From Myxococcota bacterium (lineage in GTDB: Bacteria > Myxococcota_A > Polyangia > Polyangiales > Houyiibacteriaceae), in NCBI GenBank assembly GCA_039030515.1, contig JBCCEA010000059.1:1-15445 (forward strand): a stretch of DNA of 15,445 bases, read 5' to 3'. Both the position numbers and the translations under genes were made by a program. The notes beneath the pieces were generated by a model. That model made no database searches and was not told the DNA's origin. It saw only the letters and a program-made list of their open reading frames with translations. Below, piece after piece: positions 1 to 15,445 of the stretch (position 1 is its first letter; every line of letters begins with the position of its first letter).

Positions 1-1
1 A

Positions 2-226
2 GCTGCAGCATCGTACCTGGTCAGGCGCGGGAAGAAGCTGCAGCGCCGTACCTGGTCCGGTTTGAGGCTGCAGTGCAGCTGGACGTATACAGCGATGTGG
101 CTGCAGCACCGTACCTGGTCAGGCGCGAGGAGGCTGCAGCACCGTACCTGGTCAGGTGTGGGGAGACGCTGCAGCGCCGTACCTGGTCCGGTGCGGGGAG
201 ACGCTGCAGCGCCGTACCTGGTCCGG
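2..226 (+). repeat. Tandem array of six 24-bp units GCTGCAGC(A/G)(C/T)CGTACCTGGTC(A/C)GG, period 33-35 bp with one longer gap (REP-like)
   Basis: Units read directly at 2-25, 37-60, 100-123, 133-156, 168-191 and 203-226. Linkers are 9-11 bp, G-rich and similar to each other, except one 39-bp gap at 61-99. A degenerate remnant TGGTCCGG lies at 241-248. The array may continue left of the window. Confidence 0.95.
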
Positions 227-376
227 TGCGGGGAGGCCGGTGGTCCGGTGCAGGGAAGGGTTAAATGGAGACTAATTTGGAAATCTGGGTAGCCTTCTCT
301 ATCCCGCAGCTGCAATGTTTTGCCCTGCAATGCATGTCTTAAAAACGTCGTTCAGAAGCATCTCCATGGACACACC

Positions 377-1771
377 TTGACCGAGCAAAAGCAAATCCTG
401 ATCGCAGACGACGAACCCAACCTAAGACGGGTTTTGCGGGCTCAGTTGTCCCGTGACGGATACGATGTTCATGCTGTAGGCGATGGACAGGCAGCAGCCG
501 AAGTTCTTGCTCAACACCATATCGATGTCGTTATCACCGATTTACGCATGCCGCAGATCGACGGCATCGGCGTACTCAAGCACATTCTCGAGGCACATCC
601 TGACGTGCCAGTCATCCTCATTACGGCACATGGCACCGTGGATACCGCGGTGGAAGCCTTAAAGCTTGGTGCGTTCGACTACGTAACCAAGCCTTTTGAT
701 CGCATCGAACTCGCTCGAGTAGTCGCAAAAGCGACGAAGACTCGAGACCTTTCTTACGTTTCGAAGGCACCAACTGACGCTCGAGGTCGCTATCGAATTA
801 TCGGTCAATCGGAACTTATGCAGGATGTATACGGGATCATCGATCGCGTTGCCGATACTCCGAGCACCGTACTCGTGACCGGAGAAAGCGGCACGGGTAA
901 AGAGCTCATTGCACGGGCCTTGCACGAGCACAGTGCTCGTAAGGACAAACCATTTATCCGAGTCAACTGTGCGGCAATCCCTCCGGAGCTCCTGGAGAGT
1001 GAGCTGTTCGGATACGAAAGAGGAGCGTTTACCGGTGCTGTGACTAGCAAGCCCGGGCGTTTTGAGCTTGCCAACGAAGGAACCCTTTTTCTGGATGAAA
1101 TCGGAGAAATCTCAGTCAGCATGCAGGTAAAGCTGCTCCGTGTGATTCAAGAGCAGGAGTTCGAAAGAGTTGGCGGAATCAAGACAATCAAGGTGGGTGT
1201 ACGACTCGTTGCCGCCACCAATCGAGATTTGAAAGAAGAGATCGAAGTTGGTCGTTTTCGAGAAGACCTGTACTACCGACTCAACGTAGTACAAATGCAC
1301 TTGCCTCCACTCAGAGAACGGCGCTCTGATATTCCCTTACTACTCGAGCATTTCATAGATTTATTCAATGATAAGCTTGGCCGGAACGTGCAGGGGTTTT
1401 CCAATGAGGCAAGAGATCGCCTGCTTGAATACCCTTTTAGGGGCAACATTAGAGAACTTGAAAACGTCGTAGAACGGTGCATGATTTTCTGTGATCATAA
1501 CGAAATTCTAAAAGAGCATTTGCCGCCAGAGGTGACCGAGAACACCGGAACTTTGTCGATTAAGTCCTTACTTCAAACAGCGCAACACGCATCCGAAGGC
1601 ACCGATCTTAAGGAGGCAGTTCGAGAGGCTGCAGCACGTGTGGAGCGAGAGCTCATCTTGCGTGCACTTGGTCAAACAGGCGGTAACGTAACCCACACTG
1701 CGCGTCTACTAAAAATCTCTCGTAAGAGCCTGCAGACAAAGATGAAAGAGCTCGGTTTGCGGCAGGAATGA
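377..1771 (+). CDS. Sigma54-dependent response regulator (NtrC/AtoC family: receiver, AAA+, Fis-type HTH)
   Basis: Receiver motifs ILIADDE, TDLRMP and KP; Walker [15 protein letters not shown] loop; Walker [21 protein letters not shown]-terminal [21 protein letters not shown]. Start placed at TTG 377 (GGA 6 nt upstream) rather than 320. Confidence 0.95.
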
Positions 1772-1926
1772 CACTCCAAATCTGAAAAGATCCTTGCCGA
1801 CATATGGATTGATCCTTTCCCAAACAATCAGTGGCTTCGGGTCCCTTGCCAAGTAGGAACGTATTCCGACTTTGATAGAGAACCGCGGTGCCTGGCCCCG
1901 AAGTGATTCAGAGAGTAGTCTCGTCC

Positions 1927-3342
1927 GTGGCCACAGCTCGCATACTCATTGTCGATGACGAGAAGAATATCCTAGCAACGCTTTCACGAGCTTTACGTGT
2001 GGAAGATTTCGACGTGGATGTTGCAGGTAGTTCTAAGCTCGCGCTTTCTCGGCTTTCGCAGAGATCTTACGACCTGATTCTCCTCGATGTGATGCTACCT
2101 GGCACCGACGGTTTGTCCCTTCTCAGGCAGCTGCGCTCGGAGTCTAACGATGTGGCAGTGATCGTAATGAGCGGTCACGCGTCGATTGAGACCGCAGTTG
2201 AGGCCACTCGATTTGGGGCCAGAGAGTTCATTGAAAAGCCCATCTCTACGGATCGGCTCCTAGTATCCATTCGGAACTGCCTCGATATACGCAAGCTTGA
2301 AGCGGAAAATAAGGAACTTAAGCAACGCAGCGGCGCGGTGAACTCTCTGCTTGGGGAAAGCGATCCAATGCGCCAACTTCGACAACGCATCTCACTTGCT
2401 GCTTCAGCCAACGCAGCCGTTCTTGTGACGGGGGAGCGAGGCACGGGAAAAGAGCTTGTGTCTCGAGCCATTCACGAAGGCAGCAAGCGTGCCCACAAGT
2501 CTCTTGAAAAGCTCAATTGTGCGGCGGTTCCCGCGGACCTAATCGAGTCCGAACTCTTCGGTCACGAAGCCGGGGCGTTTACTGGCGCTACTCGACAACG
2601 TCTCGGAAAGTTTGAGCGAGCTCATGGCGGTACACTTTTTCTGGATGAGGTCGGGGATATGCCACCGTCTATGCAGGCGAAGTTACTCCGAGTTTTGCAA
2701 GAAGGCGAGATCGAGCGAGTTGGGGGCCAAGATACGATCAGAGTCGATGTTCGGGTCGTGGCCGCGACCAACAAGTCCCTTGAAAAGGAAATCAAACTTG
2801 GACGGTTTCGAGCAGATCTATTCGATCGACTTAATATCCTACCGATTCACGTTCCGGCCCTTCGCGAACGACGTTCTGACATTGCCACGCTGGCTGAGTA
2901 TTTTGTGGATGCAGTGAGCAAGGCAAACGATCGACCTCCTAAGACCTTTTCCTCCGAGGCACTCGATGCCTTGAAGGAATATGGCTTTCCCGGAAACGTG
3001 CGCGAACTCCGCAATCTAATAGAGCGTCTCGTGATCTTAATCATCGGCAGCACGATAACTGAATCCGACATCCACTCTGTGATTCCATTCGGACAGCGTT
3101 CCTCGTCGATTTCCAAGGGATTTGTGCCGGGAATGCCTTTGAGGCAGATGATGGATGGCGTGGAGCGCGACCTGATCCTTCAAGCTTTGGACTACAACCG
3201 GGGACACATCACGAACACCGCTGCGAGTTTGGGTCTTGAGCGAAGCCATCTATATAAAAAAATGAAGGCATTAGGGATTCGAAAAGAAGCCAAAATGAAC
3301 GTCGCCGAGTCGATCGATCTCGACGATATGATCGATTCTTGA
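1927..3342 (+). CDS. Sigma54-dependent response regulator (NtrC family, NtrX-like receiver and HTH)
   Basis: ILIVDDE, LLDVMLP, MSGHASIETAVEA and FIEKP; Walker A GERGTGKE; GAFTGA; FLDEVG; HTH GHITNTAASLGLERSHLYKKMK. Start uncertain among in-frame GTGs between 1888 and 1927. Confidence 0.93.
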   Translation: MATARILIVDDEKNILATLSRALRVEDFDVDVAGSSKLALSRLSQRSYDLILLDVMLPGTDGLSLLRQLRSESNDVAVIVMSGHASIETAVEATRFGAREFIEKPISTDRLLVSIRNCLDIRKLEAENKELKQRSGAVNSLLGESDPMRQLRQRISLAASANAAVLVTGERGTGKELVSRAIHEGSKRAHKSLEKLNCAAVPADLIESELFGHEAGAFTGATRQRLGKFERAHGGTLFLDEVGDMPPSMQAKLLRVLQEGEIERVGGQDTIRVDVRVVAATNKSLEKEIKLGRFRADLFDRLNILPIHVPALRERRSDIATLAEYFVDAVSKANDRPPKTFSSEALDALKEYGFPGNVRELRNLIERLVILIIGSTITESDIHSVIPFGQRSSSISKGFVPGMPLRQMMDGVERDLILQALDYNRGHITNTAASLGLERSHLYKKMKALGIRKEAKMNVAESIDLDDMIDS

Positions 3343-3379
3343 TGTCAGAGAATATCGACTCCTAATATGCATTTTAGAA

Positions 3380-4216
3380 CTACGTCGTTGACCTTCTCCT
3401 ACACAGAAACACTACGTCATCAAGAATCTGCACTGGAGATTCTTGATTGCCGCGGCATAAGTATGGTGCACGTGAAAAAGCATCTACGTGCCAGCCCAGT
3501 GGCTGCAAAAGGTAGGCTGTTAGTGCCGTTACTCCAGCTTCCCACGACCGACTGTCTGCAGGTAATTGCTCTTCTGGTGCGCAAATGTGTCCGCCTACCT
3601 GCACATGAGGGCGTAGCGGTAGAGGGACAGCCAGAGCTAAATACCCCTGTTCACCAACGAATCGCGCAATGTTCTCCATAAGAGTAATCGGACGTTTCGT
3701 GCGGTCGATCACGTTGAGCAACGTGACCATATCAAAACCTCTGTGGAGAAGCTCTGAGGATATTTCGTTTGTCAAATCGACAGGAAATGCACTGTAGCCA
3801 AGACGTTTCAGGCGCTCAACCATGGGGAGACTCGTTTCTGTTGCCTCTACAGACTCAAAAAGAGGAGCGAGCTCTCTTGTGACTTGCCCGTCTCCGGCGC
3901 CAACGTCGAGCAAGCGTGCGCCCAAGAAGTCTTGGCCAAGCAGTGCTTGCCACTGCCGGGTTCCCAAGACGCGCATCGAGAAAATGCCTAGCGTTCCGTT
4001 GATGTCGTAGTCGCTCATCTTTCTTCGAACCGCCTCACGGACCTGCATCACGGCGTCACTGTGCGGTTGTTCTAATGCATTATCGATCCATCGTTTTGTT
4101 GAGTCATCCAAGCCGAGCGGTCGAAATCGGTTTCTCAGTGATTTCGGCAGTGCTTCTGTGTCGCAGGTGTAGTGCAGCGATAAGCCTCGATAACGGATCA
4201 TAGGCTCTCTTGACAT
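3380..4216 (-). CDS. Class I SAM-dependent methyltransferase, METTL9/DREV family-like (putative protein-histidine N-methyltransferase)
   Basis: Motif I LLDVGAGDG and post-I ATETS. Family-type segments DINGTLGIFSM, LLNVIDR, LAVPLPLRPHV and FSRAPYLCRG...LDDVVF resemble recalled human METTL9 segments. Start uncertain (4234 TTG, or ATG at 4225, 4216 or 4201). Confidence 0.85.
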   Translation of the reverse strand: MSREPMIRYRGLSLHYTCDTEALPKSLRNRFRPLGLDDSTKRWIDNALEQPHSDAVMQVREAVRRKMSDYDINGTLGIFSMRVLGTRQWQALLGQDFLGARLLDVGAGDGQVTRELAPLFESVEATETSLPMVERLKRLGYSAFPVDLTNEISSELLHRGFDMVTLLNVIDRTKRPITLMENIARFVGEQGYLALAVPLPLRPHVQVGGHICAPEEQLPADSRSWEAGVTALTAYLLQPLGWHVDAFSRAPYLCRGNQESPVQILDDVVFLCRRRSTT

Positions 4217-4423
4217 CGACTCCATTGATCGCAAGCAGCTTTCTGACCGAAGATATATTCGTTGTCCTCAATGCACACAGCGATAAGCTGCGGAAGAATC
4301 GCAAACGCACATGATCGATGCGCGTAAGCGCTCCGAAGCTCTAAGTTAATGACAACAGAGTCGGAGCCTGGTTCATTCAATTGAATGCAGTGGCAAATCT
4401 GCAAACTTCTCAGCCCGGGCCTC

Positions 4424-4972
4424 CTATGTTTGACTCGACCGTGGCCCCTTTGAATATGGGTTAGACACGTATACTTTCTGAATCTCCATGTAGATATCCC
4501 CTTTGGGACGCTGAACGAATACCTCGTCACCCTCTTCCTTGCCGAGGATTGCCCGGGCGACAGGTGAGTCACAGCTGATGCTGTCGGGATCTGCTCCGGT
4601 CTCGTCAGGGCCAACAATGCGATAGGTTTTCTCGAAGCCTTCCCCGTTCAAAAGGAGCACCCAGCATCCGAAGTAGACCTTCCCGTCGTCTTTGGGAACT
4701 CCGTCAACGATCTGCAGTACTTCAAGTCGTTTACCCAGAAACTTAAGACGGCGATCGATCTCCATAAGCTTTTTCTTGCTGTAGATGTACTCCGCGTTCT
4801 CTGATCGATCCCCTTCCGCTGCTGCAGTTGCGACCGCTTTCGTCACCTTAGGCCGCTCTATGTTCCAGAGATGGGCGGCTTCCTCTTCTAGACGCCGATA
4901 TCCCTCGAGGGTGATGAAGCCGGCCCGACCCGAAGTGTCTGGACGGTTCCTCTGTCGACTCTTGCCACGCAT
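4424..4972 (-). CDS. greB: Transcription elongation factor GreB
   Basis: FITLEGYRRLEEE...LWNIERPKVT...AAAEGDRSENAEYIYSKKKLMEIDRRLKFL (GreB-type GDRSENAEY and basic patch), YRIVGPDE and ISCDSPVARAILGK. Start set at ATG 4972 because the longer ORF overlaps the divergent gene. Confidence 0.93.
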   Translation of the reverse strand: MRGKSRQRNRPDTSGRAGFITLEGYRRLEEEAAHLWNIERPKVTKAVATAAAEGDRSENAEYIYSKKKLMEIDRRLKFLGKRLEVLQIVDGVPKDDGKVYFGCWVLLLNGEGFEKTYRIVGPDETGADPDSISCDSPVARAILGKEEGDEVFVQRPKGDIYMEIQKVYVSNPYSKGPRSSQT

Positions 4973-5087
4973 ATCGCTGATGTAGCAGCTCCAGCCGCGA
5001 GGGCAGCACCCCCAGTCAAAGCAAGGTTTGAGCCTCTGTAGATCGTTTTCGCTTGCACGCTCCGTGTCCGTGGATCCTCCTTCATGT

Positions 5088-5939
5088 ATGTTTGAAGCCG
5101 TGCCCTCTATTCCCATTCTTGCGAGTGGTGATGCGCGTCGCAGAGTGGAACGCCTCGATCTGCCGTTCAATAGTTTGGGATTTGACCCCTACGGTATCGA
5201 TAAGGACCAGCTGGCCCGACTCTACACGGTGCTCGGATGGATGCGCGCTCGCTACTTCGAGGCCGAAGAGTTTGGTCTCGAGCATGTACCAACTCGAGGG
5301 CGCGCGATGCTTGTCGGCAATCACTCTGGAGGCATTGCGATCGATGGGGCCATGGTCATGGCCAGTTTGTTTTTCGGTCGAGACGAACCGCGCCTGGCGC
5401 AGGGAATGGCCGAGAAGTTCCTCCATCGAACCCCGTTTGCCAGCTACATACTCAATCGGGTGGGTGCGCTAACCGGTCTGCCCGAGCATGCGGTGCGTTT
5501 GCTCGAAGACGAGCGGTTGTTGATGGTATTTCCGGAAGGCGCTCGCGGCACAGCAAAGCTCTTTCATGAACGCGACTCGCTGGTCGAATTCGGCACAGGC
5601 TTCATGCGGTTGTCCCTCCAGACCGGAACCCCTATCGTCCCCTTTGCGTTTGTCGGCGGAGGCGAAGCGATCCCGACCGTTGCGAATCTTTATGGCTTAG
5701 GTAAGTTGCTCGGTGTTCCCTATGTCCCAGTGACGCCCTGGGTTTTGCCGTTTCCGATGCCGGTTCGATTTGAGTTGATCTACGGCGCTCCGATGCGCTT
5801 CGAGGGCACCGGAAACGAAGAAGACCGCCAGATTCGCCGGTACGTGGAGCAAGTAAAAGAGCGGGTGGGCGGGCTGATCGCTCAAGCGAGGGCGGTTCGA
5901 GAAGGAACAATGCATCCATCGGACTTGAACTACTCATGA
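5088..5939 (+). CDS. Lysophospholipid/glycerol acyltransferase (PlsC-like, LPLAT superfamily)
   Basis: [12 protein letters not shown] catalytic His/Asp block, VFPEG motif, [15 protein letters not shown]. Its stop overlaps the next start (ATGA, 5936-5939). Start at ATG 5088 or GTG 5100. Confidence 0.9.
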
Positions 5940-6862
5940 AGGTGGCGATTACCGGTATTTCCGGAACGATCGGTAGGAGCGTCGCCTCGCGCCTTGTCGA
6001 ACGCGGTCACGAAGTGCTTGGTATCGATCGACGGCCCTGGTTCGGTGCACCCGAGGGCATCAAGATGCACCAAGTGGATATCCGCAAGCGTCCAGCTGAA
6101 GATGTTTTTCGCACGGAGCTACCGAGCGCTGTCGTGCACATGGCCACGGTGACCCATCTATCCGCGCGAAACCCAGATCAAATGCGCATCAACTTACAGG
6201 GGACCCGTGCGGTATTCGACTACGCCCACCGTTACGAGGTTTCCAAGGTCGTTTTTGTGGGTCGGCATACGTATTACGGGGCTGCGCCTGATGCTCCACT
6301 CTATCATGCCGAAGACGAGCCGCCGATGGCGGTACACACCTTCCCCGAGCTGGCAGATTTGGTGGCGGCGGACCTCTACGCAGGATCCGCGTTGTGGCGA
6401 TATCCCGAGATGCACACTGCAGTGCTTCGATTCTGCTACACGCTTGGGCCTTCAAGACACGGAACTCTCGCGGCTTTTCTCGGTGGTCCTCGTACGCCTA
6501 CGGTACTCGGTTTCGACCCGCTTTTTCAGTTCATGCACGAAAGCGACGTTGCAGATGCGATCGCCATGGGGCTGGAGGTGCCCCTTCGAGGTGTGTACAA
6601 CGTAGCCGGTCCGCAGCCTCTCCCTCTTTCGGTCATCGTTCGTGAAAGCAGAAGGCGGAACCTGGCGATTCCGGAACTACTCATGCCCTTGGCCTTGGGA
6701 CGTTTTGGACTACCTAAGCTTCCGACAGGCGCTATCGAGCACCTAAAATACCCCGTGGTGATCGACAGCAGTCTCTTTCGGAGCGTCACCGGATTCGTTC
6801 ATCGGCACACTGAACGCGAGACCATCGATGCTTTTGCGGCTCGATCGTCTTCAACTACATGA
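5936..6862 (+). CDS. NAD-dependent epimerase/dehydratase family protein (atypical SDR)
   Basis: N-terminal Rossmann motif [11 protein letters not shown], then [22 protein letters not shown] and GVYNVAG. Overlap with the acyltransferase suggests translational coupling. Confidence 0.88.
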
Positions 6863-6934
6863 GGAGTTTTGCCGAGCCGTCACTCCCATGCTTGGGTGTA
6901 CATCCAACCCAAGATCGAGAGGAATCTGACCACG

Positions 6935-7459
6935 ATGTTTCGTCCCAAACGCGCCATACCGAAGGCGGGCGCCGCATTGCTTGCGCTCGGTGGCTGTGCC
7001 GACGCAGAGCGTTTTCCCTTCACGACAGGGGTTGATGCCGGCGGCGTCGATGCGTCTTCATTCGACCTCGACGCTCAGGTGTCCGACGCGAAGTTTCAGG
7101 AGGACTCGGGTGGGCCTGGCGCTGACTCCGGATCCGATGAGCCAGACGCAGTTGTGTGCAACGTGAGCACTGAAGATCCCGTCAGCCTGAGTCAGGCGGC
7201 TTCCAATCACTGTGACAACCTGGGCTGTTGCGCTGGGGTCGACCTAGGTGCTGAATGTGACGTGTTCTATCAAGACCTGGTGCTCAACTACTTCGCTCCT
7301 TGCCAGGATGACTGGGCCATTTTATTCAACTGCGGAGCGACAAGCTGCGACGCGCAGTGGACGTTTTCTGATCGAGGCGAGATTCTGGCATCCGAAGAGC
7401 TGAGAGTCTGCGTTGAGGGCGATCCACGATTTCGTGGTTTTACGGATTGCGGGGGGTAG
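6935..7459 (+). CDS. Putative lipoprotein with an acidic linker and a Cys-rich C-terminal domain
   Basis: MFRPKRAIPKAGAALLALGGC gives a basic n-region, hydrophobic stretch and lipobox LGGC. A D/A/G/S-rich linker follows, then 10 more Cys. GAGG lies upstream of ATG 6935. Confidence 0.7.
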   Translation: MFRPKRAIPKAGAALLALGGCADAERFPFTTGVDAGGVDASSFDLDAQVSDAKFQEDSGGPGADSGSDEPDAVVCNVSTEDPVSLSQAASNHCDNLGCCAGVDLGAECDVFYQDLVLNYFAPCQDDWAILFNCGATSCDAQWTFSDRGEILASEELRVCVEGDPRFRGFTDCGG

Positions 7460-7540
7460 CGGGGCGATCATCCGAACGATAACTGCGTTCGCACTGCGCG
7501 ACCTTAGGTCATATGTTGGGCGCGGTATCGAAGTGTTTCG

Positions 7541-8788
7541 TCAAATCGGCTTCATCCAAAAAAGATGCTCCCGGCGCTTTTTTTTGCCACCCCAATCTGG
7601 GCGAGCTTGTGATGCTTCGGCTTCGATGCGAAACCCGCACTTGGGCGCGAGCCGATGTAACTGAACGTCTGCGTCCACCCGATGGCCTCCGACTTGAGCA
7701 TCCCCGAGAAGAAAGAAGAGATCGGCGGAGTCGGTCACCACACCCCTTATCGAGCGCAGGCTTGAACCGAGCTCTGCATCCCATCGCTGTTCACCATCGC
7801 GGTTGTTTCCAAGTTTACGACGGGATCCGATTTCCAGTCTCAGCATTCGACTGGTTTTGAGTCCGAGCCAAGGATATCTCCGGCTGTGATGGTCGATGTA
7901 GTCGTAGGTGCCTCCGTAGGGGGGGGAAGTCAGTACCAGTTCCACTGTCCTCCCACCTAAAAGAGGGCTGAGCTTTCGGGCATCGCCTTCTAGAATCTCA
8001 GGTCGCGGAGAGGCGGCACCGCAACTGTCGTCGAGTTCCTTCCAGCGTCTCACGAGCTCCTCACCTTTTCGTTCGAAGAATTCGGTTACAAGTCCTTTTC
8101 GGATGCGTTTCTCCCGCATTTTTTGGGAGGTATCGGCGGTCTGTTTGGAGAACTTGATGACGATGGCGCTGAAGAGCACTTCAAAAAGACGTCTCTGGGA
8201 GTCGCTTTCAACTTGCTGAATCTCCTCCAGTAGCCCCGCCAACTCTTTGAGTACATGGGGATCGTACCACTGGAGTTCGCTCTTTGGCAGCTTCGCCACA
8301 ACCGGTTTGCGGGTCTGAACACGCTCACGGGAAGCGTCCACCAATCGGGCCAAGGCGAGCAAAAACGTGTCTCTTCCCTGCTTCGAAACCCGTCGCGTTT
8401 TGGCTTCAGCAACTCGCAAGGCCAGTGGATTCAGATCAACTCCGGTGGAAGGCAGTCCTCGAACCCGCGATTCGACGAGAACCGTTCCACTGCCGCAGAA
8501 AGGATCCAGTATTTTCGATATCTTGGGGTTCGCTATCGTGCTGCCGGACGCGTCCTGCAAGGACGTCCAATAGTCGAGTAACGCGCGTACGATTCCCGGA
8601 TGCATTCGGGCCGGATACGAATGAAAACCGTGGGTTAGGGTGTCGGCGCTCGAAGCGCTTGCCCGGAGCGCTCGGGCGAGCACTTCAGTGGAGTCTGGCG
8701 GACCCGATGTCGTTATTTGGCCGCTTTGATGAGATAGAGGTGCTCTACGAGCTTCGTTCACCCGCCACGTCTTGGGCCACACGGTCAT
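7541..8788 (-). CDS. Amino-(N4-cytosine/N6-adenine) DNA methyltransferase-like protein, alpha motif order, orphan
   Basis: HGFHSYPARM, motif I ILDPFCGSGT, GVDLNPLA, a long central region, GDAR, and motif IV LVLTSPPY (SPPY is typical of m4C enzymes). Start uncertain (ATG 8788 or GTG 8761). Confidence 0.8.
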   Translation of the reverse strand: MTVWPKTWRVNEARRAPLSHQSGQITTSGPPDSTEVLARALRASASSADTLTHGFHSYPARMHPGIVRALLDYWTSLQDASGSTIANPKISKILDPFCGSGTVLVESRVRGLPSTGVDLNPLALRVAEAKTRRVSKQGRDTFLLALARLVDASRERVQTRKPVVAKLPKSELQWYDPHVLKELAGLLEEIQQVESDSQRRLFEVLFSAIVIKFSKQTADTSQKMREKRIRKGLVTEFFERKGEELVRRWKELDDSCGAASPRPEILEGDARKLSPLLGGRTVELVLTSPPYGGTYDYIDHHSRRYPWLGLKTSRMLRLEIGSRRKLGNNRDGEQRWDAELGSSLRSIRGVVTDSADLFFLLGDAQVGGHRVDADVQLHRLAPKCGFRIEAEASQARPDWGGKKKRREHLFWMKPI

Positions 8789-8965
8789 GCTGCGCCAGTC
8801 GACGTTTTTCGCCCTCCACCTGCCGTCAACGGCGCACAGCGATTCGGGTCGCGAGTTCACACGAGATCGACCGCGTACCGCAAGTAACGAGCGGGACGAC
8901 AACAGGATTTCGCCGCGTGGGATGGAACCTCGGTCGTGTTGCCGCGAGGCGTGTGCTGCTGTTCT

Positions 8966-9034
8966 GTGTCGCTGCTCGCGGTAGTGCAGTGTCGCTGCTC
9001 GCGGTAGTGCAGTGTCGCTGCCTGCGGTAGTGCA
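8966..9034. repeat. Three tandem 23-bp repeats GTGTCGCTGCTCGCGGTAGTGCA
   Basis: Copies at 8966-8988 and 8989-9011 are identical; 9012-9034 has CTC changed to CCT. Lies in the divergent intergenic region between the DNA methyltransferase and the kinase. Confidence 0.95.
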
Positions 9035-9076
9035 GTTTTTTGACCACGAGCTCCTTCAAGAGAGACCTTATCCTAC

Positions 9077-10072
9077 ATGTTGAGGGCCACGGGCGAACGC
9101 TCGGAGCTGCGTGGGACTGTCCTCGGGGGAAGCTATCGGGTGGGGGCCTGCATCGGCGCTGGAGGAACGGGCCTTGTATTCGAGGCGCGACGACTGGACG
9201 ACGGTGCGCTCTTTGCCGTCAAGATGCTTCGGCCGATCTACGCCGCACACACGGAACTCTGTCGACGGCTTCTTCGTGAGCGCGAGGTGAGTCGCTCGGT
9301 GCGCCATTCTGGAATCGTGCCGGTTGTGGATGAGGGACACCTTACGGACGGATCCCCCTACCTCGTCATGCCCCGTCTGAGAGGGGAGTCACTGGCGCAG
9401 TTGCTGCGGCGGGTAGGAATTCTTTCTTCGCCAGAGACCGCCGCGATCGGCATCCGTTTGGCTTCTGTACTGCAGTCTGCCCATTCTCGTGGTTTTGTGC
9501 ACCGGGATCTCAAACCTGAGCATGTACTGCTCGATCGTGCCTCTTGCGGTGCACTCGATATGCATCTCATCGATTTTGGGGTGGTTGCCTCGGTGACTGC
9601 ACCCCGTGAAGAGCGCGACGGTGAGCGAGGCAAAATATTTGGAACTCCGAACTATGCTTCTCCTGAGCAGGCTTGCGGGGATCCTTTTGTGGATGGGCGA
9701 TCCGACCTCTTTTCGCTGGGCATACTTCTTTTTGAATGCGTCTCGGGTGAGCTGCCGTACTGCGGAGACAACGTGGCGTCGCTTCTTCGGCAGATCATGA
9801 TGGCGGAGCCGCCCCGAGTCTCCTCGCTAGCGGGACATGTCGACGAGACCCTCGACCGGGTCATCGCCAGGGCGATGTCACGTTCGTCAGAGCAGCGCCA
9901 TCCTACGGCCCGGGCCATCGCTCGGGATCTGCGACCGGTTGCTGAGCCGCAACTTGGTGTCGAGAGGTTGCTTGCAAGCAGGCTACGGGTTGGCGGTGAG
10001 CAGCAAGAGCAAGTGGAAACCGTGAGGGAACGTGTTCCGCTTGCGGTCTGCGGTGCACCTAGCTTGGTCTGA
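9077..10072 (+). CDS. Hanks-type serine/threonine protein kinase (soluble, little beyond the catalytic domain)
   Basis: IGAGGTGLV glycine loop, AVK, HRDLKPEH, DFG, GTPNYASPEQ and SDLFSLG. No transmembrane segment is evident. Confidence 0.93.
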   Translation: MLRATGERSELRGTVLGGSYRVGACIGAGGTGLVFEARRLDDGALFAVKMLRPIYAAHTELCRRLLREREVSRSVRHSGIVPVVDEGHLTDGSPYLVMPRLRGESLAQLLRRVGILSSPETAAIGIRLASVLQSAHSRGFVHRDLKPEHVLLDRASCGALDMHLIDFGVVASVTAPREERDGERGKIFGTPNYASPEQACGDPFVDGRSDLFSLGILLFECVSGELPYCGDNVASLLRQIMMAEPPRVSSLAGHVDETLDRVIARAMSRSSEQRHPTARAIARDLRPVAEPQLGVERLLASRLRVGGEQQEQVETVRERVPLAVCGAPSLV

Positions 10073-10078
10073 GCGCCT

Positions 10079-10228
10079 GCATATTCTCCAGAGGACGCAC
10101 GGCAAGATTCTGGACAGAACCAGGACAAGCCGTACCAGGTACGGTAAAAGGCCGCATATTCTCCAGAGGATGCACAGCAAGATTCTGGACAGAACCAGGA
10201 CAAGCCGTACCAGGTACGGTAAAAGGCC
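10079..10228. repeat. Two tandem 75-bp repeats, each with the perfect interrupted palindrome CCGTACC-A-GGTACGG
   Basis: 10079-10153 and 10154-10228 differ at 2 positions. Palindromes lie at 10130-10144 and 10205-10219. The repeat starts 6 bp after the kinase stop. Confidence 0.95.
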
Positions 10229-10451
10229 GGCAACAGCTCGGTCGCCTCAGAAGCGATGACCGAGAGCTGAAACGATCCGCTCACATCCCTCCGGATGTGC
10301 AGACTTGAAGTGCCTCCCCGCGCATCCACCTAGCCTTAAACGAGGCTACGGGATCAAATCAATCGAGGTCTGCCGTGCGCAACGGCCGCATTTCGAAACG
10401 ATGCTAAGGGTGTCTCTGCGCGGTCACTCTGCGCGCGGAACATGCCTCGAA

Positions 10452-10456
10452 GGAGG
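10452..10456 (+). promoter_or_regulatory. Shine-Dalgarno site for sixA
   Basis: GGAGG at 10452-10456 (within AAGGAGGG) just upstream of ATG 10461. Confidence 0.7.
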
Positions 10457-10460
10457 GCGC

Positions 10461-10946
10461 ATGAAGATTCTGCTCGTGAGACATGCAGAAGCAGTCCCGT
10501 CCGAAAGAATGATGGACGATGCATCACGTTGGTTAACCCAGGCCGGACGATCTATGGCGCAGGCTCAGGGAGCTCGGCTCGCGAAGACCGGCGTGAGCTT
10601 GAGCTACCTCTGGACCAGCCCCTTGGTGCGCGCGGTGCAAACCGCCGAGCGAATGGCGCACTCACTCTCGTTTGACGGTGAAATCGGGGTGCTTTCCGAG
10701 CTGCATCCCGATCATGGTACGACCAGACAGCTTGTTTCTTGTCTCACCAATATCGAACCTGAAGCCAATGTGATGTGGGTCAGCCATATGCCGAAGGTGT
10801 GCGCACTAGTCTCCGACTTGACCGGGATAGAAGTGCCTCCCTTTCGAACGTCGCAGGTGGTTCAAATCGCGTTCAATCCGAGTGAGGGGTTGGCCCGTCT
10901 CGAATGGTCGCTCGAGCCCAGCTCGGGTCGATTCCTGAGGTACTGA
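10461..10946 (+). CDS. sixA: Phosphohistidine phosphatase SixA (histidine phosphatase superfamily)
   Basis: MKILLVRHAEA (RHx motif), RWLTQAGR, TSPLVRAVQTA and VSHMP. Length 161 aa with a good RBS. Confidence 0.85.
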   Translation: MKILLVRHAEAVPSERMMDDASRWLTQAGRSMAQAQGARLAKTGVSLSYLWTSPLVRAVQTAERMAHSLSFDGEIGVLSELHPDHGTTRQLVSCLTNIEPEANVMWVSHMPKVCALVSDLTGIEVPPFRTSQVVQIAFNPSEGLARLEWSLEPSSGRFLRY

Positions 10947-11097
10947 TCGCGAGCGAGCTTGAAATACAAGCCGCGTCCTGACGATGCGGAAACAAGCGCT
11001 CGCGTTCATGGGCTGAGGCGAAAAGGCGCCCCGAGTTCGCCATCGGGTAGGCTCGCAAGTTTTTTGTCCGGGCACTACAACTAAGGCGGAGGTGGAG

Positions 11098-11736
11098 ATG
11101 AAGCCAGCGACGTTGAGCGAGCTGCTGGAACGATTGCATCGCGATTTGGCGGAACGGTTTCAGCAAAGCGTTGAGGCACTTGAAGCGCGAGCGAACGCTG
11201 CGGATGAGCATGCTCAAGCCCGTCTGAGTGAGATGGACGAGCGTTCCGTTGCCGTGCTCCTCGAGCTGGGATCCGTTCGACGCTATGCGTTCTTGAAGGA
11301 ACGAGCTTTGCAGTTCGAGTCAAGCATAGAAGGTGTTGATGCCCCGATATGCTTTGCTTTTTCTCTTCCCGAGGACACGATCGAGCCATTGATCGACGCT
11401 TTGCGTCAAGCCGCCCCCGCCTCGGAGTCTATCGATCAAATATACCTGACCTCTCTTCGGGACACCGAGGCGCTATTTCAAACGCATCCCATCCGAATGC
11501 ACTTGACGGTCCAAGATATTCCGGGAGCGGGCACGTCGACGTTTTTCATCGGACTCGGAGTTTCAGAAGTGCCCAAGAATCCAGAGTTTACGGCGACCGT
11601 AAGTTATGACGACCTGAGGGAGCTCACCACACAGGGGTTTCAACCGCAGCAGCTGATGATGCAGGGCAAGGTTCGACTTCAGGGAGATTACTCTGCTGCG
11701 ATTCAGCTGGCCATGCAGTGGATGGCCAAGCAGTAG
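11098..11736 (+). CDS. Protein with a C-terminal SCP2 sterol/lipid-binding domain
   Basis: C-terminal PEFTATVSYDDLREL...QPQQLMMQGKVRLQGD matches the SCP2 pattern. GGAGG at 11088-11092 precedes ATG 11098. Confidence 0.75.
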   Translation: MKPATLSELLERLHRDLAERFQQSVEALEARANAADEHAQARLSEMDERSVAVLLELGSVRRYAFLKERALQFESSIEGVDAPICFAFSLPEDTIEPLIDALRQAAPASESIDQIYLTSLRDTEALFQTHPIRMHLTVQDIPGAGTSTFFIGLGVSEVPKNPEFTATVSYDDLRELTTQGFQPQQLMMQGKVRLQGDYSAAIQLAMQWMAKQ

Positions 11737-11834
11737 CCAGCTCAGAGAAACGAACTTGCGTCGCTGTCGACACGCTGAGTACCCTAGACCTGCCCTAAAA
11801 CTTGGGCAGGACGGATGATCACTTGGACCGCATT

Positions 11835-13616
11835 TTGAAGAATCGATTTGTTTTACCTGCGTTCGGCGCGAACGTTTTGCTGGTCCTCGTCGCTGTTTTG
11901 GCCGTGAATCCCTCGGGTGCCTCACTGATCGCAATTTTAGCGGTCGGTGTGGGTGGCTGGTTGATCGCAGTTTTCGGCATTTCGGTAGGGTCTTTGACGA
12001 AAAACGACGTCGATGCACTTGTGGCTTCCGTTCGAGGAGCTGCCGAAGGACGTCCCCCAAGTCGCCTCAGCGTACCGGAACTAGTCCCCTGCTACGAGGC
12101 GCTTCAGGATCTGGCTGATGACATCAATCGCCAGCACCGCTGCAGAGAAGAGATCTCCAGAAGCTCAAGCGACTTCGAGTCGCGAGCACTCGGGGCTGAG
12201 GCCGAGGTTCAGGAAGCTGCAGAGTCTCTCCGGAGGCTCCGGGACGAGTTACACACGGCCTCGAGTGCCCTCGGGCGCATGGAAGACAAAGCTGAGATCG
12301 AAGGAAAGAACGCGTCTCGACTCCGGGAAGAAGTGAGTGAGTGTGAGGCGGCGATAAGTGAACACGTGGAAGAGCTTTCGTCGGGTGTGCAAGAACAGGT
12401 CCGAGCCGTCGATCAGACCACTCAGTCGATGATGCAGATTGCAGCAGCCCTTCAGCAGATCGCGCAGCATGTGGAAGCCCTCGCGTCCAGTGCAGAGGAG
12501 AGCTCTTCCAGTATTTTGCAGATGACCGCCACAAACGATGAAGTTGCTGAAAACATGGCCAACCTGGCGGCGAGCGTTCGAGAAACCGTGTCTTCTATCG
12601 AAGAGATGGCGTACAGCATCAAAGAAGTTGCGCGCAACGTTGACGCGCTTTCGCTGACGGCAGAAGAAACTTCGTCGTCGATGAACGAAATGGACGTGTC
12701 CATCGATCAGGTGCAGTCCAACGCCAACGAAACAGCGCGTCTATCTGAGGAAGTTGCGCTAGACGCCGATCGCGGAGCTGAGGCTATTCTCAAGACCATT
12801 GAGGAGATCAACCGGATTCGGGAAACCTCCGGGGAAGCTGTCGACGTCATCAGCAATCTGGGTACTCGGATTGAAGCCATCGGAGACATCCTCAACGTGA
12901 TCGACGACGTGGCCGAGCAAACCAATCTCCTTGCTTTGAATGCTGCGATTATAGCAGCGCAGGCGGGAGAGCACGGCAAGGGCTTCGCTGTAGTTGCCGA
13001 CGAGATAAAGGACCTTGCAGAACGTGCGGGCGCGTCGACCAAAGAGATCGCAGAGTTGATCAAGACGATCCAGTCGGAGAGCAAAAATGCGATCACCGCC
13101 GTGGAGCGAGGCGCCCAGACCGTGGACCGAGGCGTTCAGGTGAGTGCTGACGCTGAAGAAGCCCTGAAAAAGATCCTCGAGTCATCTCAGAAATCAACCG
13201 GTATGGTGCGTGCCATCGCGCGTGCGACCGTAGAGCAAGCTAAGGGTAGCAAGCAGGTGACCGATGCGATTGGCAGAATTGCTGAAACCGTGCAACAAAT
13301 CGCTGCGGCAACAGCGGAGCAGGCTCGTGGCTCTGAGCTCATCATGAAGGGTGCAGAAAAAATGCGCATGATAACGCAGCACGTTGAGCGAAGCAGTCAG
13401 GAACAGGCTCGAGGCGGTCGCCAAATCAGTCAGTCCATCGAGAATATTTCCAATATGGTGAATCATCTCCACCAGTCCCATCGGCAGCAGGCAAATAGCT
13501 CTGAACAGACCCTGGTCGCAGCGCGCCGCATGCAGGAGTTGACCTCTGAGCAGGAGCGTCGATTGGCAGCAGTGGGTGGCGCCGCCTCGCGTCTACGCAA
13601 GGTAGGTCAAGGATAG
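11835..13616 (+). CDS. Methyl-accepting chemotaxis protein with two closely spaced TM helices and a long cytoplasmic coiled coil
   Basis: Signalling tip [42 protein letters not shown]; methylation-type heptads AEESSSS, EEMAYS and AEETSSS; N-terminal hydrophobic hairpin. Start at TTG 11802 or 11835. Confidence 0.93.
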
Positions 13617-13622
13617 TTTTTT

Positions 13623-14141
13623 GTGTTGGGAATCGGTGCTGGTGAATTTACCGTCCTCATCGTAGTTCTGGTTCTCGTCGTTGGCCCGAAGGAGATGCCG
13701 AAACTGGTGCGCTCCTTCGCGAAGTTCATCAGAGAGTTTCGAAAAGCCTCGAATGAAGTTCGTGATTCTGTCGGTATCGATAAAATGATCCGAGAGGAAG
13801 AGCTCAAAGAGCTTCGAGAAATGCAGCGCCTCGCGCGTGAACGGCTCCAGTTGCCCGAGTCGCCCTCCACTCGCGGAACCTCGTCGGTTCGCGGCCATGC
13901 AATCAGCTCCGGATCCGGAAAGAGCAACTCAAAGTCCCTAGTATTGGAGGCGGATCAAAGTGAGCCTGAATCCCCAACGCAGGGAGCGACCTCTTCAGGC
14001 ATCGATGCTGTAGACCAACCGCGAAAAGTGCCTGAGCTCCTACAAGCACCAGACTCCATTCCGTTTGCAGTCGAGTCCGAGGACGAGACAATTCCAGACC
14101 TAGCGCCTCACGCAGCTTTGGCTGAACCGAAAACGGAATGA
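13623..14141 (+). CDS. tatB: Twin-arginine translocase subunit TatB (TatA/B family)
   Basis: MLGIGAGEF-TM-GPKEMP, then an amphipathic helix and a long disordered tail. Overlaps the tatC start (ATGA). Confidence 0.88.
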   Translation: MLGIGAGEFTVLIVVLVLVVGPKEMPKLVRSFAKFIREFRKASNEVRDSVGIDKMIREEELKELREMQRLARERLQLPESPSTRGTSSVRGHAISSGSGKSNSKSLVLEADQSEPESPTQGATSSGIDAVDQPRKVPELLQAPDSIPFAVESEDETIPDLAPHAALAEPKTE

Positions 14142-14980
14142 CGGATGGGCCTACCGCCGGGTCAGAGCAGGGACCCGAGGATGAGGTAGAGATGGAGTTC
14201 TTCGAGCACCTCGGCGAGCTTCGTACGCGCCTGCGAAACGCGATTCTTGGTTCGCTACCTGCAATCGGGGTTGCCTGGTTTTTCAAAGAAGAGCTGCTGG
14301 ACTGGCTGCTCCAGCCTCTTGTGGAGGCCTGGGAGGCGCTGAATCTTGGGAAGCCACAAATTCATTTTGCCAATCCCATAGATCCCTTCGTCGCATATCT
14401 AAAGATCTCGATCATTGTAGGGCTTATTGCGAGTGCCCCGTGGCTTTTTTGGCAACTTTGGGCATTTATCGCTCCGGGACTATACCGTCGTGAAAAACGC
14501 TTGGCGGTTCCCTTTGTTTTATTTTCGACGGTCTTTTTCGTAGGAGGCGTTTGGTTTGGGTACGAGGTGGTGTTTCCACTAGGCTTTGAGACTTTTCTGA
14601 GCTTTGCTGGCTTGTTGCCAAGTGAATCCATCGCTGTGTCTCCAACGCTGATGATCAACGAGTATCTCGGGTTTGCCACACGCATGCTGCTCGCCTTTGG
14701 AGTGGTGTTCGAGGTGCCAGTGATCAATACATTTCTATCGGCAGTTGGTCTCGTCACCTGGCGTCAATTGCTCGCCTTTGCGCGTTGGTGGATTCTGATC
14801 GCTGCTGTATTGGCAGCATTTCTGACTCCTCCCGATATCGCCTCTCAGTTATTGATGCTCGTTCCACTCGTAGCTTTATATTTTCTGTCGATTGGATTTG
14901 CTGCTCTATTTGGCATTCGCCACGCGCGTCAGAGGTCAGCAGAGCACGAACAGGCCCAATCCAAGGGCTACGAACGTTGA
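14138..14980 (+). CDS. tatC: Twin-arginine translocase subunit TatC
   Basis: FFEHLGELRTRL, WQLWAFIAPGLYRREKR, FGVVFEVP and AAFLTPPD, with multiple TM segments. Confidence 0.96.
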   Translation: MTDGPTAGSEQGPEDEVEMEFFEHLGELRTRLRNAILGSLPAIGVAWFFKEELLDWLLQPLVEAWEALNLGKPQIHFANPIDPFVAYLKISIIVGLIASAPWLFWQLWAFIAPGLYRREKRLAVPFVLFSTVFFVGGVWFGYEVVFPLGFETFLSFAGLLPSESIAVSPTLMINEYLGFATRMLLAFGVVFEVPVINTFLSAVGLVTWRQLLAFARWWILIAAVLAAFLTPPDIASQLLMLVPLVALYFLSIGFAALFGIRHARQRSAEHEQAQSKGYER

Positions 14981-15004
14981 GACGCGGGTCTGCGACTGCG
15001 AAGC

Positions 15005-15183
15005 AACCTGACCGGGTACCAACCTGACCGGGTACCAACCTGACCGGGTACCAACCTGACCGGGTACCAACCTGACCGGGTACCAACCTGACCGGGTACC
15101 AACCTGACCAGGTACGGCCGTGGCAGCCCCCAGAACCTGACCAGGTACGGCCGTGGCAGCCCCCAGAACCTGACCGGGTACGG
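15005..15183 (-). repeat. Composite tandem array: 6 x 16-bp AACCTGACCGGGTACC, 2 x 33-bp AACCTGACCAGGTACGGCCGTGGCAGCCCCCAG and a final partial unit
   Basis: The 16-mers span 15005-15100 and are all identical. The 33-mers are at 15101-15133 and 15134-15166, and the last core is at 15167-15183. The reverse complement contains the left-array core CCGTACCTGGTCAGG. Confidence 0.95.
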
Positions 15184-15445
15184 TGTTTCGCTGCTGGCCC
15201 TCTGCGGCTTGGCGAAGATGTTTCGCATTCTACAAAGCCCGGCGGCGCCCTCGCCCAAAGGCGCGTGGATGAACGCAGGACTCTTCTTCGGCTTGTCTGC
15301 TGCAGCCAATCCGGTGATCGCCCTCGTGGCGGCCCTATGCATTCTTCCTCGTTTATTGCATCTAGTTTGCACGAGCCGCATCGGCCGCACCGGGTGCCTA
15401 CACGCGATCGTCGGCGGATGTATCGGCCTTTTGCCCTATCTTTGG
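15179..15445 (+). pseudogene. Partial polytopic membrane-protein frame, possibly a 5'-truncated DUF2723/TMEM260-like glycosyltransferase (runs off the window)
   Basis: Open frame YGVSLLALCGLAKMFRIL...AGLFFGLSAAANPVIALVAALCILP...GGCIGLLPYLW with hydrophobic segments. First ATG is at 15218 and an in-frame TGA lies upstream at 15089-15091. Family resemblance is from memory only. Confidence 0.35.

Follow-up and report, generated by a model that had tools for sequence, protein, structure and literature searches.

This work concerns a window of 15,445 nucleotides (contig JBCCEA010000059.1 of assembly GCA_039030515.1, positions 1 to 15,445) from a myxobacterium of the order Polyangiales, and a METTL9-like methyltransferase gene on its minus strand (3380..4216). 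According to the list of open reading frames (ORFs) and their translations, the gene encodes 278 amino acids and ends with a stop codon at 3380-3382. It lies in a single open frame, 3380..4234, with alternative in-frame starts at TTG 4234, ATG 4225 and ATG 4201. The ATG at 4216 fits best with the N-termini of the homologues, since it stands a few residues before a conserved 'YRG'. The translation shows no hydrophobic segment at the N-terminus. The first-pass annotation, made from the DNA letters, had described the product as a full-length bacterial homologue of the eukaryotic protein-histidine methyltransferase METTL9 (DREV family). All the protein segments that it quoted are found in the minus-strand translation in the order claimed. 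The human METTL9 segments that it cited agree letter for letter with the HMMER alignment to the structures 9vpq and 7y9c and with P0276, a 318-residue mammalian METTL9 whose 90% cluster contains human isoform 4.

The claim of full-length homology was borne out by the family profile, the hits to Protein Data Bank (PDB) chains and the predicted fold. The Pfam DREV profile (PF05219) matches residues 16-272 of 278 on profile positions 2-263 of 265, with an E-value of 1.1e-41 and 143.2 bits (cut-off 26), far above the best generic methyltransferase family, Methyltransf_23 (E 4.3e-12, 46.5 bits). The sole NCBIfam match is a weak one to ovoA_Cterm (TIGR04345; 34.3 bits against a cut-off of 170), and no equivalog was matched. 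Among the 14 PDB matches found by phmmer, the METTL9 of Ostreococcus tauri (8BVI, E 8.6e-34) joins three human METTL9 constructs (best E 2.6e-37) in the top four, and the next match after the METTL9 chains is OvoM, at E 5.7e-4. The protein is colinear with human METTL9 (7Y9C, 7YF2-4, 8GZE, 9VPQ), residues 16-272 corresponding to human 58-316, and BLASTP against P0276 gives 94 identities in 268 positions (35%, E 4e-45). Given that this alignment begins at residue 58 of the mammalian protein and that the N-terminus of the window protein is not hydrophobic, the N-terminal signal/anchor segment of the eukaryotic enzyme is absent here.

The AlphaFold2 model, built from a 33-row alignment of the window protein's subclade, has a mean predicted local distance difference test score (pLDDT) of 94.2 and a predicted template modeling score (pTM) of 0.91. 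Its ten best Foldseek matches are all METTL9 structures, at E 7.7e-29 to 2.7e-25, with template modeling (TM) scores of 0.82-0.89 and root-mean-square deviations of 2.2-2.7 Å; the O. tauri enzyme stands at E 2.7e-25. The superposition that the first-pass annotation had proposed thus gives a close fit, with TM scores of 0.83-0.89 over 267-272 columns for the human METTL9-peptide complexes. After METTL9, the closest solved folds are OvoM and OvsM (E ~1e-10, TM 0.5-0.6). By profile and predicted model, the gene is one that encodes an intact seven-beta-strand methyltransferase of the DREV/METTL9 family.

The fold, the residues for S-adenosylmethionine (SAM), the catalytic pair and the first-histidine pocket are common to the human enzyme and the window protein. 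All motifs described here lie on the minus strand. Motif I, LLDVGAGDG (residues 102-110; 3887..3913), contains D104, G106 and D109, the counterparts of the SAM-binding human residues D151, G153 and D156. The post-I motif ATETS (residues 125-129; 3830..3844) provides T126 and E127 for human T173 and E174, and the human E174A mutant is reported to be inactive (PMC12269839). In LLNVIDR (residues 166-172; 3701..3721), N168 corresponds to the SAM ligand N210, and D171 and R172 to D213 and R214. Altogether, in the HMMER alignment the seven SAM-site residues (D151, G153, D156, T173, E174, N210 and N118) are identical in the window protein, and the D213/R214 pair is present as D171/R172. In the human enzyme, a hydrogen bond from D213 to N3 of the target histidine turns N1 (N-pi) towards the SAM methyl group, and the first histidine of the His-x-His (HxH) motif sits in a pocket made of Y295, M126, C297 and L308 (PMC10308197). 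This pocket, for the histidine at position i-2, is kept at four of four positions, as Y252, M81, C254 and L265.

The remainder of the peptide-binding groove is different. Residues 67-81 (MSDYDINGTLGIFSM; 3974..4018), which align with human 112-126 in 7y9c and 9vpq, keep N73 (N118) and M81 (M126), and D69, Y70 and I78 replace R114, T115 and R123, which belong to the 'x' pocket and the clamp on the peptide backbone. The human pocket for the 'x' residue is formed by R114, N118 and R123 (PMC10308197); of these only N118 is kept, the window protein having D69, N73 and I78. In the region aligned with the human covering loop, PLPLRPHVQ (residues 198-206; 3599..3625), P198, R202, H204 and Q206 replace the peptide contacts V241, H245, Y247 and E249; one single-residue gap is the only difference in length from the human enzyme. 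The segment PYLCRGN (residues 251-257; 3446..3466) keeps Y252 (Y295) and C254 (C297), with R255 in place of E298 and N257 in place of D300. Two more human residues are replaced, W255 by Ile and Y306 by Gln.

The alignment of the wider family places these replacements in context. It comprises 150 rows, namely the best representatives of at least 240 amino acids from a library of 1.84 billion proteins together with 14 named loci. A first tree divided them into 87 bacterial-side, 55 eukaryote-side and 8 unplaced rows; the sides rest on that tree, most rows being unnamed. Neither side shows any variation at D151, G153, D213 or R214 (87/87 and 55/55). N210 is kept in 84 of the 87 bacterial-side and all 55 eukaryote-side rows, Y295 in 85 and 55, and E174 in 81 and 54. 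Four contact positions, in contrast, differ between the sides. At T115, the bacterial side has Tyr (45) or Phe (42) and the eukaryote side Thr (48 of 55); at R123, the bacterial residues are Met (33), Thr (23), Ala (13), Ile (7) and Leu (5), and Arg is found in 31 eukaryote-side rows; at V241, Pro (73 of 87) stands against Val (46 of 55); and at E249, Tyr (44), His (15) and Phe (11) stand against Glu (48 of 55). In this alignment, the bacterial branch carries its own signature at T115, R123, V241 and E249, which sets it apart from the METTL9 orthologues assayed in PMC12269839, all of them eukaryotic. At the R114 position, Asp is found in 62 of the 87 bacterial-side rows. Most of the peptide-contact replacements in the window protein follow a pattern common to the bacterial branch.

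At two positions, the window protein is unusual even among the bacterial-side rows. The D300 position is occupied by Asp in 71 of these 87 rows and by Asn, as in the window protein, in four; the Y306 position has Tyr in 56 of 87, and the Gln of the window protein is outside the five commonest residues. The first-pass annotation had singled out the change from EGD to RGN in the PYLC loop as one that may alter substrate preference. It was half right, in that all 33 rows of the window protein's subclade have the Arg at the E298 position, whereas the Asn is the rare residue just described.

The gene is the sole strong DREV match in its genome; the other match, of 32.5 bits over profile positions 97-186, is a generic methyltransferase core. 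At E 1e-10, DREV matches were found in 25 of 41 genomes, comprising the window's own and 40 relatives, with internal stops in none of them; besides the window's genome, the carriers number 18 among 24 others in its family and 6 among the order's 16 from other families. At this threshold the 14 control genomes, E. coli included, had no match. When the phylum was sampled evenly, DREV matches at 1e-15 were found in 19 of 401 genomes, all 19 of them labelled as the same family or the same order. Scanning one genome per prokaryotic species gave 43 loci, 41 of them substantial matches; the scan used two conserved peptide patterns that favour the window's subclade, and other carriers may be missed. 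A query of the close-relative loci with a single protein returned nothing, and the scan based on an alignment succeeded. Of the 41 loci, 35 are named Polyangiales, Polyangiaceae, Sandaracinus/Sandaracinaceae, Myxococcales, Myxococcota or 'delta proteobacterium', and one 'uncultured bacterium'. The other five are from Pseudomonadota, including the cultured Stenotrophobium rhamnosiphilum GT1R17 and a metagenome-assembled genome (MAG) of Panacagrimonas; in the class of Stenotrophobium, one of 400 sampled genomes matches DREV, namely Stenotrophobium itself.

A word-indexed protein search found 264 relatives at E 1e-5, with 50-52% identity for the nearest; in an exhaustive phmmer search, the representatives numbered 987 at E 1e-3, falling to 570 at 1e-10 and to 106 at 1e-30. 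The closest relatives, 44-52% identical, lie on contigs named Polyangiales of up to 966 kb. Most of the 264 relatives bear the name 'methyltransferase domain-containing protein' or 'SAM-dependent methyltransferase'. As the first-pass annotation had surmised, databases already mention such homologues, since two NCBI records from Myxococcales/Polyangiaceae MAGs bear the name 'methyltransferase-like protein 9'. The DREV/METTL9 family includes a large, deep bacterial branch, carried mainly by Polyangiales myxobacteria. As a separate observation, one 90% cluster on the bacterial side (P0150) has a member, P0407, from a transcriptome of Euglena mutabilis, which may be a bacterial contaminant or a eukaryote with a bacterial-type copy.

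The relationship between the two branches was examined in several trees. In a FastTree phylogeny of the 150 rows, the split between bacterial-like and eukaryote-like proteins is weakly supported (83); the named members on the eukaryote side are vertebrates, Rhodelphis, Cymbomonas, Symbiodinium, Yihiella, Aphanomyces and Creolimax. A quick IQ-TREE search under the LG+C20 posterior mean site frequency (PMSF) model was made on 74 rows hand-picked across the 150, with the long branch P0238 dropped. It places the 28 eukaryote-side rows, seven of them named eukaryotes, on one side of a branch with a Shimodaira-Hasegawa-like approximate likelihood ratio test (SH-aLRT) value of 97. When five very distant OvoA-C-terminal/OvoM-like rows from the same phylum were added as an outgroup (78 rows, P0177 dropped), the eukaryote clade was recovered with SH-aLRT 98 and the base of the family was unresolved. 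The phylogeny with eukaryotic orthologues that the first-pass annotation had called for therefore makes the eukaryotic METTL9s one clade. The window protein falls outside it, among rows named Polyangiales. An approximately unbiased (AU) test with the 45 non-eukaryote rows constrained to one clade gave p-AU 0.853, so that bacterial monophyly is not rejected; under this constraint, the log-likelihood exceeded that of the quick free tree by 23.1 units. The best topology found is therefore one with two reciprocally monophyletic branches. A clade of DREV proteins of 260-280 amino acids (eight representatives, among them P0168, P0189, P0190, P0196, P0220, P0227 and P0242) has a different amino-acid make-up, of low-GC composition, and Gln at the D156 position; it joins the bacterial rows in the better trees.

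Judged from these sequences, the split between bacterial and eukaryotic METTL9 is old, and neither a donor nor a direction can be assigned. The suggestion of a transfer between myxobacteria and eukaryotes, or of a shared origin, is thus upheld as to the link, with which the trees are compatible; the direction is not told by them. Within the bacteria, three Nevskiaceae/gammaproteobacterial rows (L019, from Stenotrophobium, L030 and L045) lie inside the window's subclade (SH-aLRT 97-98), beside a 'delta proteobacterium' row. Because they are nested in this subclade and such genes are rare in their class, a later transfer out of the myxobacteria is suggested for the gammaproteobacterial DREV genes.

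In the window, the methyltransferase gene is convergent with the second of two tandem sigma-54-dependent response regulators (320-1771 and 1888-3342, plus strand), which have receiver, AAA+ and Fis-type helix-turn-helix domains. About 200 nt upstream, on the same minus strand, lies a GreA/GreB-like elongation factor gene whose longest ORF is 4424-5170. Its domains begin only at residue 86, which points either to an internal true start or to an N-terminal extension. It is overlapped by a 139-residue ORF (4198-4617, minus strand) that has no family match. A 453-residue ORF (7541-8902, minus strand) shows short, weak matches of ~16-36 residues each to UPF0020 (E 2e-5) and N6_N4_Mtase (E 2e-4), and the window also encodes TatA/B and TatC. 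The GC content is 0.49-0.52 at 800-4800, compared with 0.574 genome-wide and 0.55-0.61 elsewhere in the window; this dip covers both regulators as well as the methyltransferase gene and forms no island at the latter. When 3200-5400 was scanned, no promoter or terminator signal exceeded those of shuffled sequences. Among 49 loci of homologues, the GreA-like gene and the 139-residue ORF have no counterpart adjoining the methyltransferase gene, and the recurring neighbours are sigma-54 regulators (7-8 loci), an acyltransferase (7) and an epimerase (4). Since this recurrence is too loose, the neighbours were rejected as a functional clue and no operon was inferred.

Another arrangement is found in relatives. 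A small protein that we call 'c2', with a core of ~120 amino acids and no Pfam match, is encoded upstream of the methyltransferase in 13 of the 41 loci, and ten loci encode a Kelch-repeat protein with a lipoprotein-type N-terminus. In nine of these ten, the Kelch gene ends 3-151 nt before the methyltransferase gene on the same strand. The cluster c2, Kelch, DREV methyltransferase, on one strand with gaps of 3-151 nt, is found at L010:3928-6798 and likewise in L013, L014, L015, L017, L020, L034 and L039. All ten Kelch proteins have an invariant 'PRHGH' near the C-terminus; it aligns with the Arg-x-x start of other Kelch blades and is therefore possibly just structural. Of the 25 DREV-positive genomes, 17 have c2, as do 6 of the 16 DREV-negative ones, and it adjoins the methyltransferase gene in 11; as a sign of a functional link this profile was set aside as weak and confounded by kinship. 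Kelch orthologues are present in eight DREV-positive genomes, adjacent in six, and in two DREV-negative ones. In the window's genome, c2 lies elsewhere (C13:29494-30036).

A crude ORF scan of the window's genome found ANGST-type HxHxH runs in nine ORFs of at least 80 amino acids, among them a metallo-beta-lactamase whose run is its metal site. An ArsP_1 permease of 613 amino acids (G000:C8:53084-54925 = L054:1085-2926, plus strand), related to the SO_0444 Cu/Zn efflux transporters at 216 bits, below the cut-off of 300, terminates in a (HHHGHG)n tail, GGHHHGHGHHHGHGHHHGHGHG. A metal-efflux adaptor of the CzcB/NccB family (G000:C1:163866-165167 = L055:867-2168, minus strand) has a His/Asp/Glu-rich N-terminal stretch and a C-terminal GHGHAH. 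The targets of METTL9 include zinc transporters with alternating-His runs, methylation of which reduces zinc binding (PMC7873184), and the permease tail is therefore attractive as an analogy. Orthologues of the permease in 17 related genomes have tails that are mostly rich in HGH, with or without DREV; across the 18 orthologues there is no clean co-occurrence, and by this measure the tail is not tied to DREV. By analogy, the permease, the CzcB-type adaptor and the HGH of the Kelch proteins may serve as substrate leads; they are not evidence.

We lean, by somewhat more than an even chance, towards the window protein being a cytoplasmic SAM-dependent N-pi histidine methyltransferase that acts on HxH-like sites in proteins with an altered flank preference, its substrate being only conjectured. 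In such an enzyme, D171 and R172 would hold N3 of the target imidazole and present N1 (N-pi) to the SAM methyl group, as in human METTL9. Methyl transfer to the histidine at a His-x-His-like site would follow the same bimolecular nucleophilic substitution (SN2) mechanism, by inference, and yield 1-methylhistidine, and the retained pocket of Y252, M81, C254 and L265 would hold the histidine two positions upstream. Because the backbone-clamp and x-pocket residues of the human enzyme are replaced, the window protein is expected to differ from it in which 'x' residue and flanks it favours. The tested eukaryotic orthologues still need HxH while their flank and 'x' preferences drift (PMC12269839). 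More speculatively, the targets would be His-rich metal-binding segments, such as the (HHHGHG)n tail of the permease, and methylation would tune metal binding.

Several observations weigh against this proposal. The changed contacts include mutation-sensitive ones: Ile stands for R123, Asn for D300, His for Y247, and Gln for both E249 and Y306. Peptide binding by the human enzyme was abolished in R123A, D300A and E249A, whereas R123A, D300A and Y247A cost >90% of its activity, and mutation of Y306 cost 50-90% or more (PMC10308197). R114 of the x-pocket is Asp in the window protein. Across the bacterial branch, the T115 position is aromatic in 87 of 87 rows and the five commonest residues at R123 do not include Arg; because these residues differ from the human ones, HxH specificity is not to be assumed. 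Nor do the substrate leads and the gene neighbourhood favour it. The HxH counts in the last 60 residues of the permease orthologues are 6, 3, 3, 5, 8, 11, 9, 9, 3, 0 and 1 in DREV-positive genomes and 6, 2, 0, 10, 1, 1 and 2 in DREV-negative ones. The DREV-negative genome G035 has a Kelch orthologue that keeps the HGH, none was found in the window's genome (85% complete), and given the lipoprotein-type signal of the Kelch proteins, a cytoplasmic enzyme would need to act before export. Finally, the window neighbours of the methyltransferase gene are not kept beside its homologues in the 49 loci.

Among other explanations, an enzyme with the same fold and the same imidazole N-methylation may act on a small molecule or short peptide, such as a histidine-derived metabolite, a thiohistidine, a dipeptide or a natural-product intermediate. 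OvoM and OvsM, N-methyltransferases for 5-thio- and 5-selenohistidine, are the closest folds after METTL9, and like the OvoA C-terminal domain they methylate an imidazole nitrogen (N-pi); the sole NCBIfam match points, weakly, the same way, and the window protein has other residues where human METTL9 clamps the peptide. CARNMT1, an N-pi histidine methyltransferase for carnosine and C3H zinc fingers, uses the same Asp-lined strategy, an Asp hydrogen-bonded to N3 presenting N1 to SAM, in a pocket that its dimer encloses (PMC10308197). OvoM and OvsM, however, are 16-20% identical to the window protein and take free amino acids as substrates, and CARNMT1 belongs to a different seven-beta-strand family, found neither among the best 50 Foldseek rows nor among the 14 PDB matches of phmmer. 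The ovoA_Cterm score is, moreover, far below its cut-off. No OvoA was found in the genome, where the best ovoA_Nterm match (118.6 bits against 400) is a plain FGE-sulfatase domain, and ovoA_Cterm at E 1e-25 occurs in 5 of 201 genomes of the phylum, with 0 of 13 and 0 of 15 in two DREV-rich families. The complete second-histidine pocket and the nearly unchanged length of the covering-loop region also speak for a peptide substrate, and no neighbours resembling a biosynthetic cluster were seen in the window or the 41 loci. A small-molecule acceptor, which has no pathway support here, seems to us unlikely, though it is the main alternative.

Less probable still is a shift of this family member to another acceptor, be it a different protein residue, DNA or RNA. 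The substrate-contact shell is heavily remodelled in the bacterial branch, DNA 6mA (N6-methyladenine) activity has been reported for C. elegans METL-9 (PMC10397248), and the 453-residue ORF with weak DNA-methylase-type matches lies 3.3 kb away, which is a mere coincidence of place. Against it, the residues that place the two imidazoles, namely the Asp-Arg pair and the Tyr, vary hardly or not at all in either branch, which would be hard to explain were histidine not the target. Protein methylation by CeMETTL9 has been detected (PMC12269839), and no nucleic-acid-binding domain was found in the window protein, DREV spanning almost its whole length. As for the view that there is no working bacterial gene here, owing to eukaryotic contamination, a very recent transfer from a eukaryote or decay, the GC content of ~0.50-0.52 over 2800-4800 against 0.574 in the genome and the Euglena-transcriptome member of cluster P0150 might be taken to favour it. 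The low-GC stretch, however, extends over both regulators, and the flanking genes (sigma-54 regulators, the GreA/GreB-like factor, TatA/B and TatC) are bacterial, as the first-pass annotation had argued. The gene recurs without internal stops in the 25 genomes, the nearest relatives lie on long Polyangiales-named contigs, the eukaryotic sequences form a separate clade (SH-aLRT 97-98) and all catalytic residues are intact. We give this view almost no weight; as far as sequence can show, contamination and decay are excluded.

The available texts of PMC7873184, PMC12269839, PMC10308197, PMC13027442 and PMC8662637 treat METTL9, and with it protein histidine methylation, as eukaryotic, with no mention of bacterial homologues in those parts. 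The accessible parts of the 2021 discovery paper and of the 2025 orthologue study (PMC12269839) call the family widespread in eukaryotes only, and in the available portion of a 2026 review neither 'bacteria' nor 'prokaryot' occurs. Literature searches on METTL9 together with myxobacteria, prokaryotes or horizontal transfer, and on bacterial protein histidine methylation, found no bacterial enzyme, most subscription journals being outside their coverage. The window protein is a bacterial variant of a known enzyme family, with a predicted function. A bolder interpretation is that these proteins are the first bacterial clade of protein-histidine N-pi methyltransferases, methylating alternating-His metal-binding segments, and that the restriction of the family to eukaryotes and essentially one myxobacterial order marks an ancient exchange between Polyangiales-like bacteria and the eukaryotic stem. 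We regard this as doubtful at present.

To conclude, a conserved bacterial branch with an intact catalytic core allows a direct and inexpensive test for the formation of protein 1-methylhistidine in bacteria. With its altered contacts, the branch is also a natural experiment on the substrate pocket that sets HxH and flank specificity in METTL9. The family adds one more gene common to Polyangiales myxobacteria and eukaryotes, and so bears on its own origin. If the bolder interpretation is true, a bacterial enzyme would tune metal handling by the same logic as METTL9 acting on the ZIP and ZnT zinc transporters.

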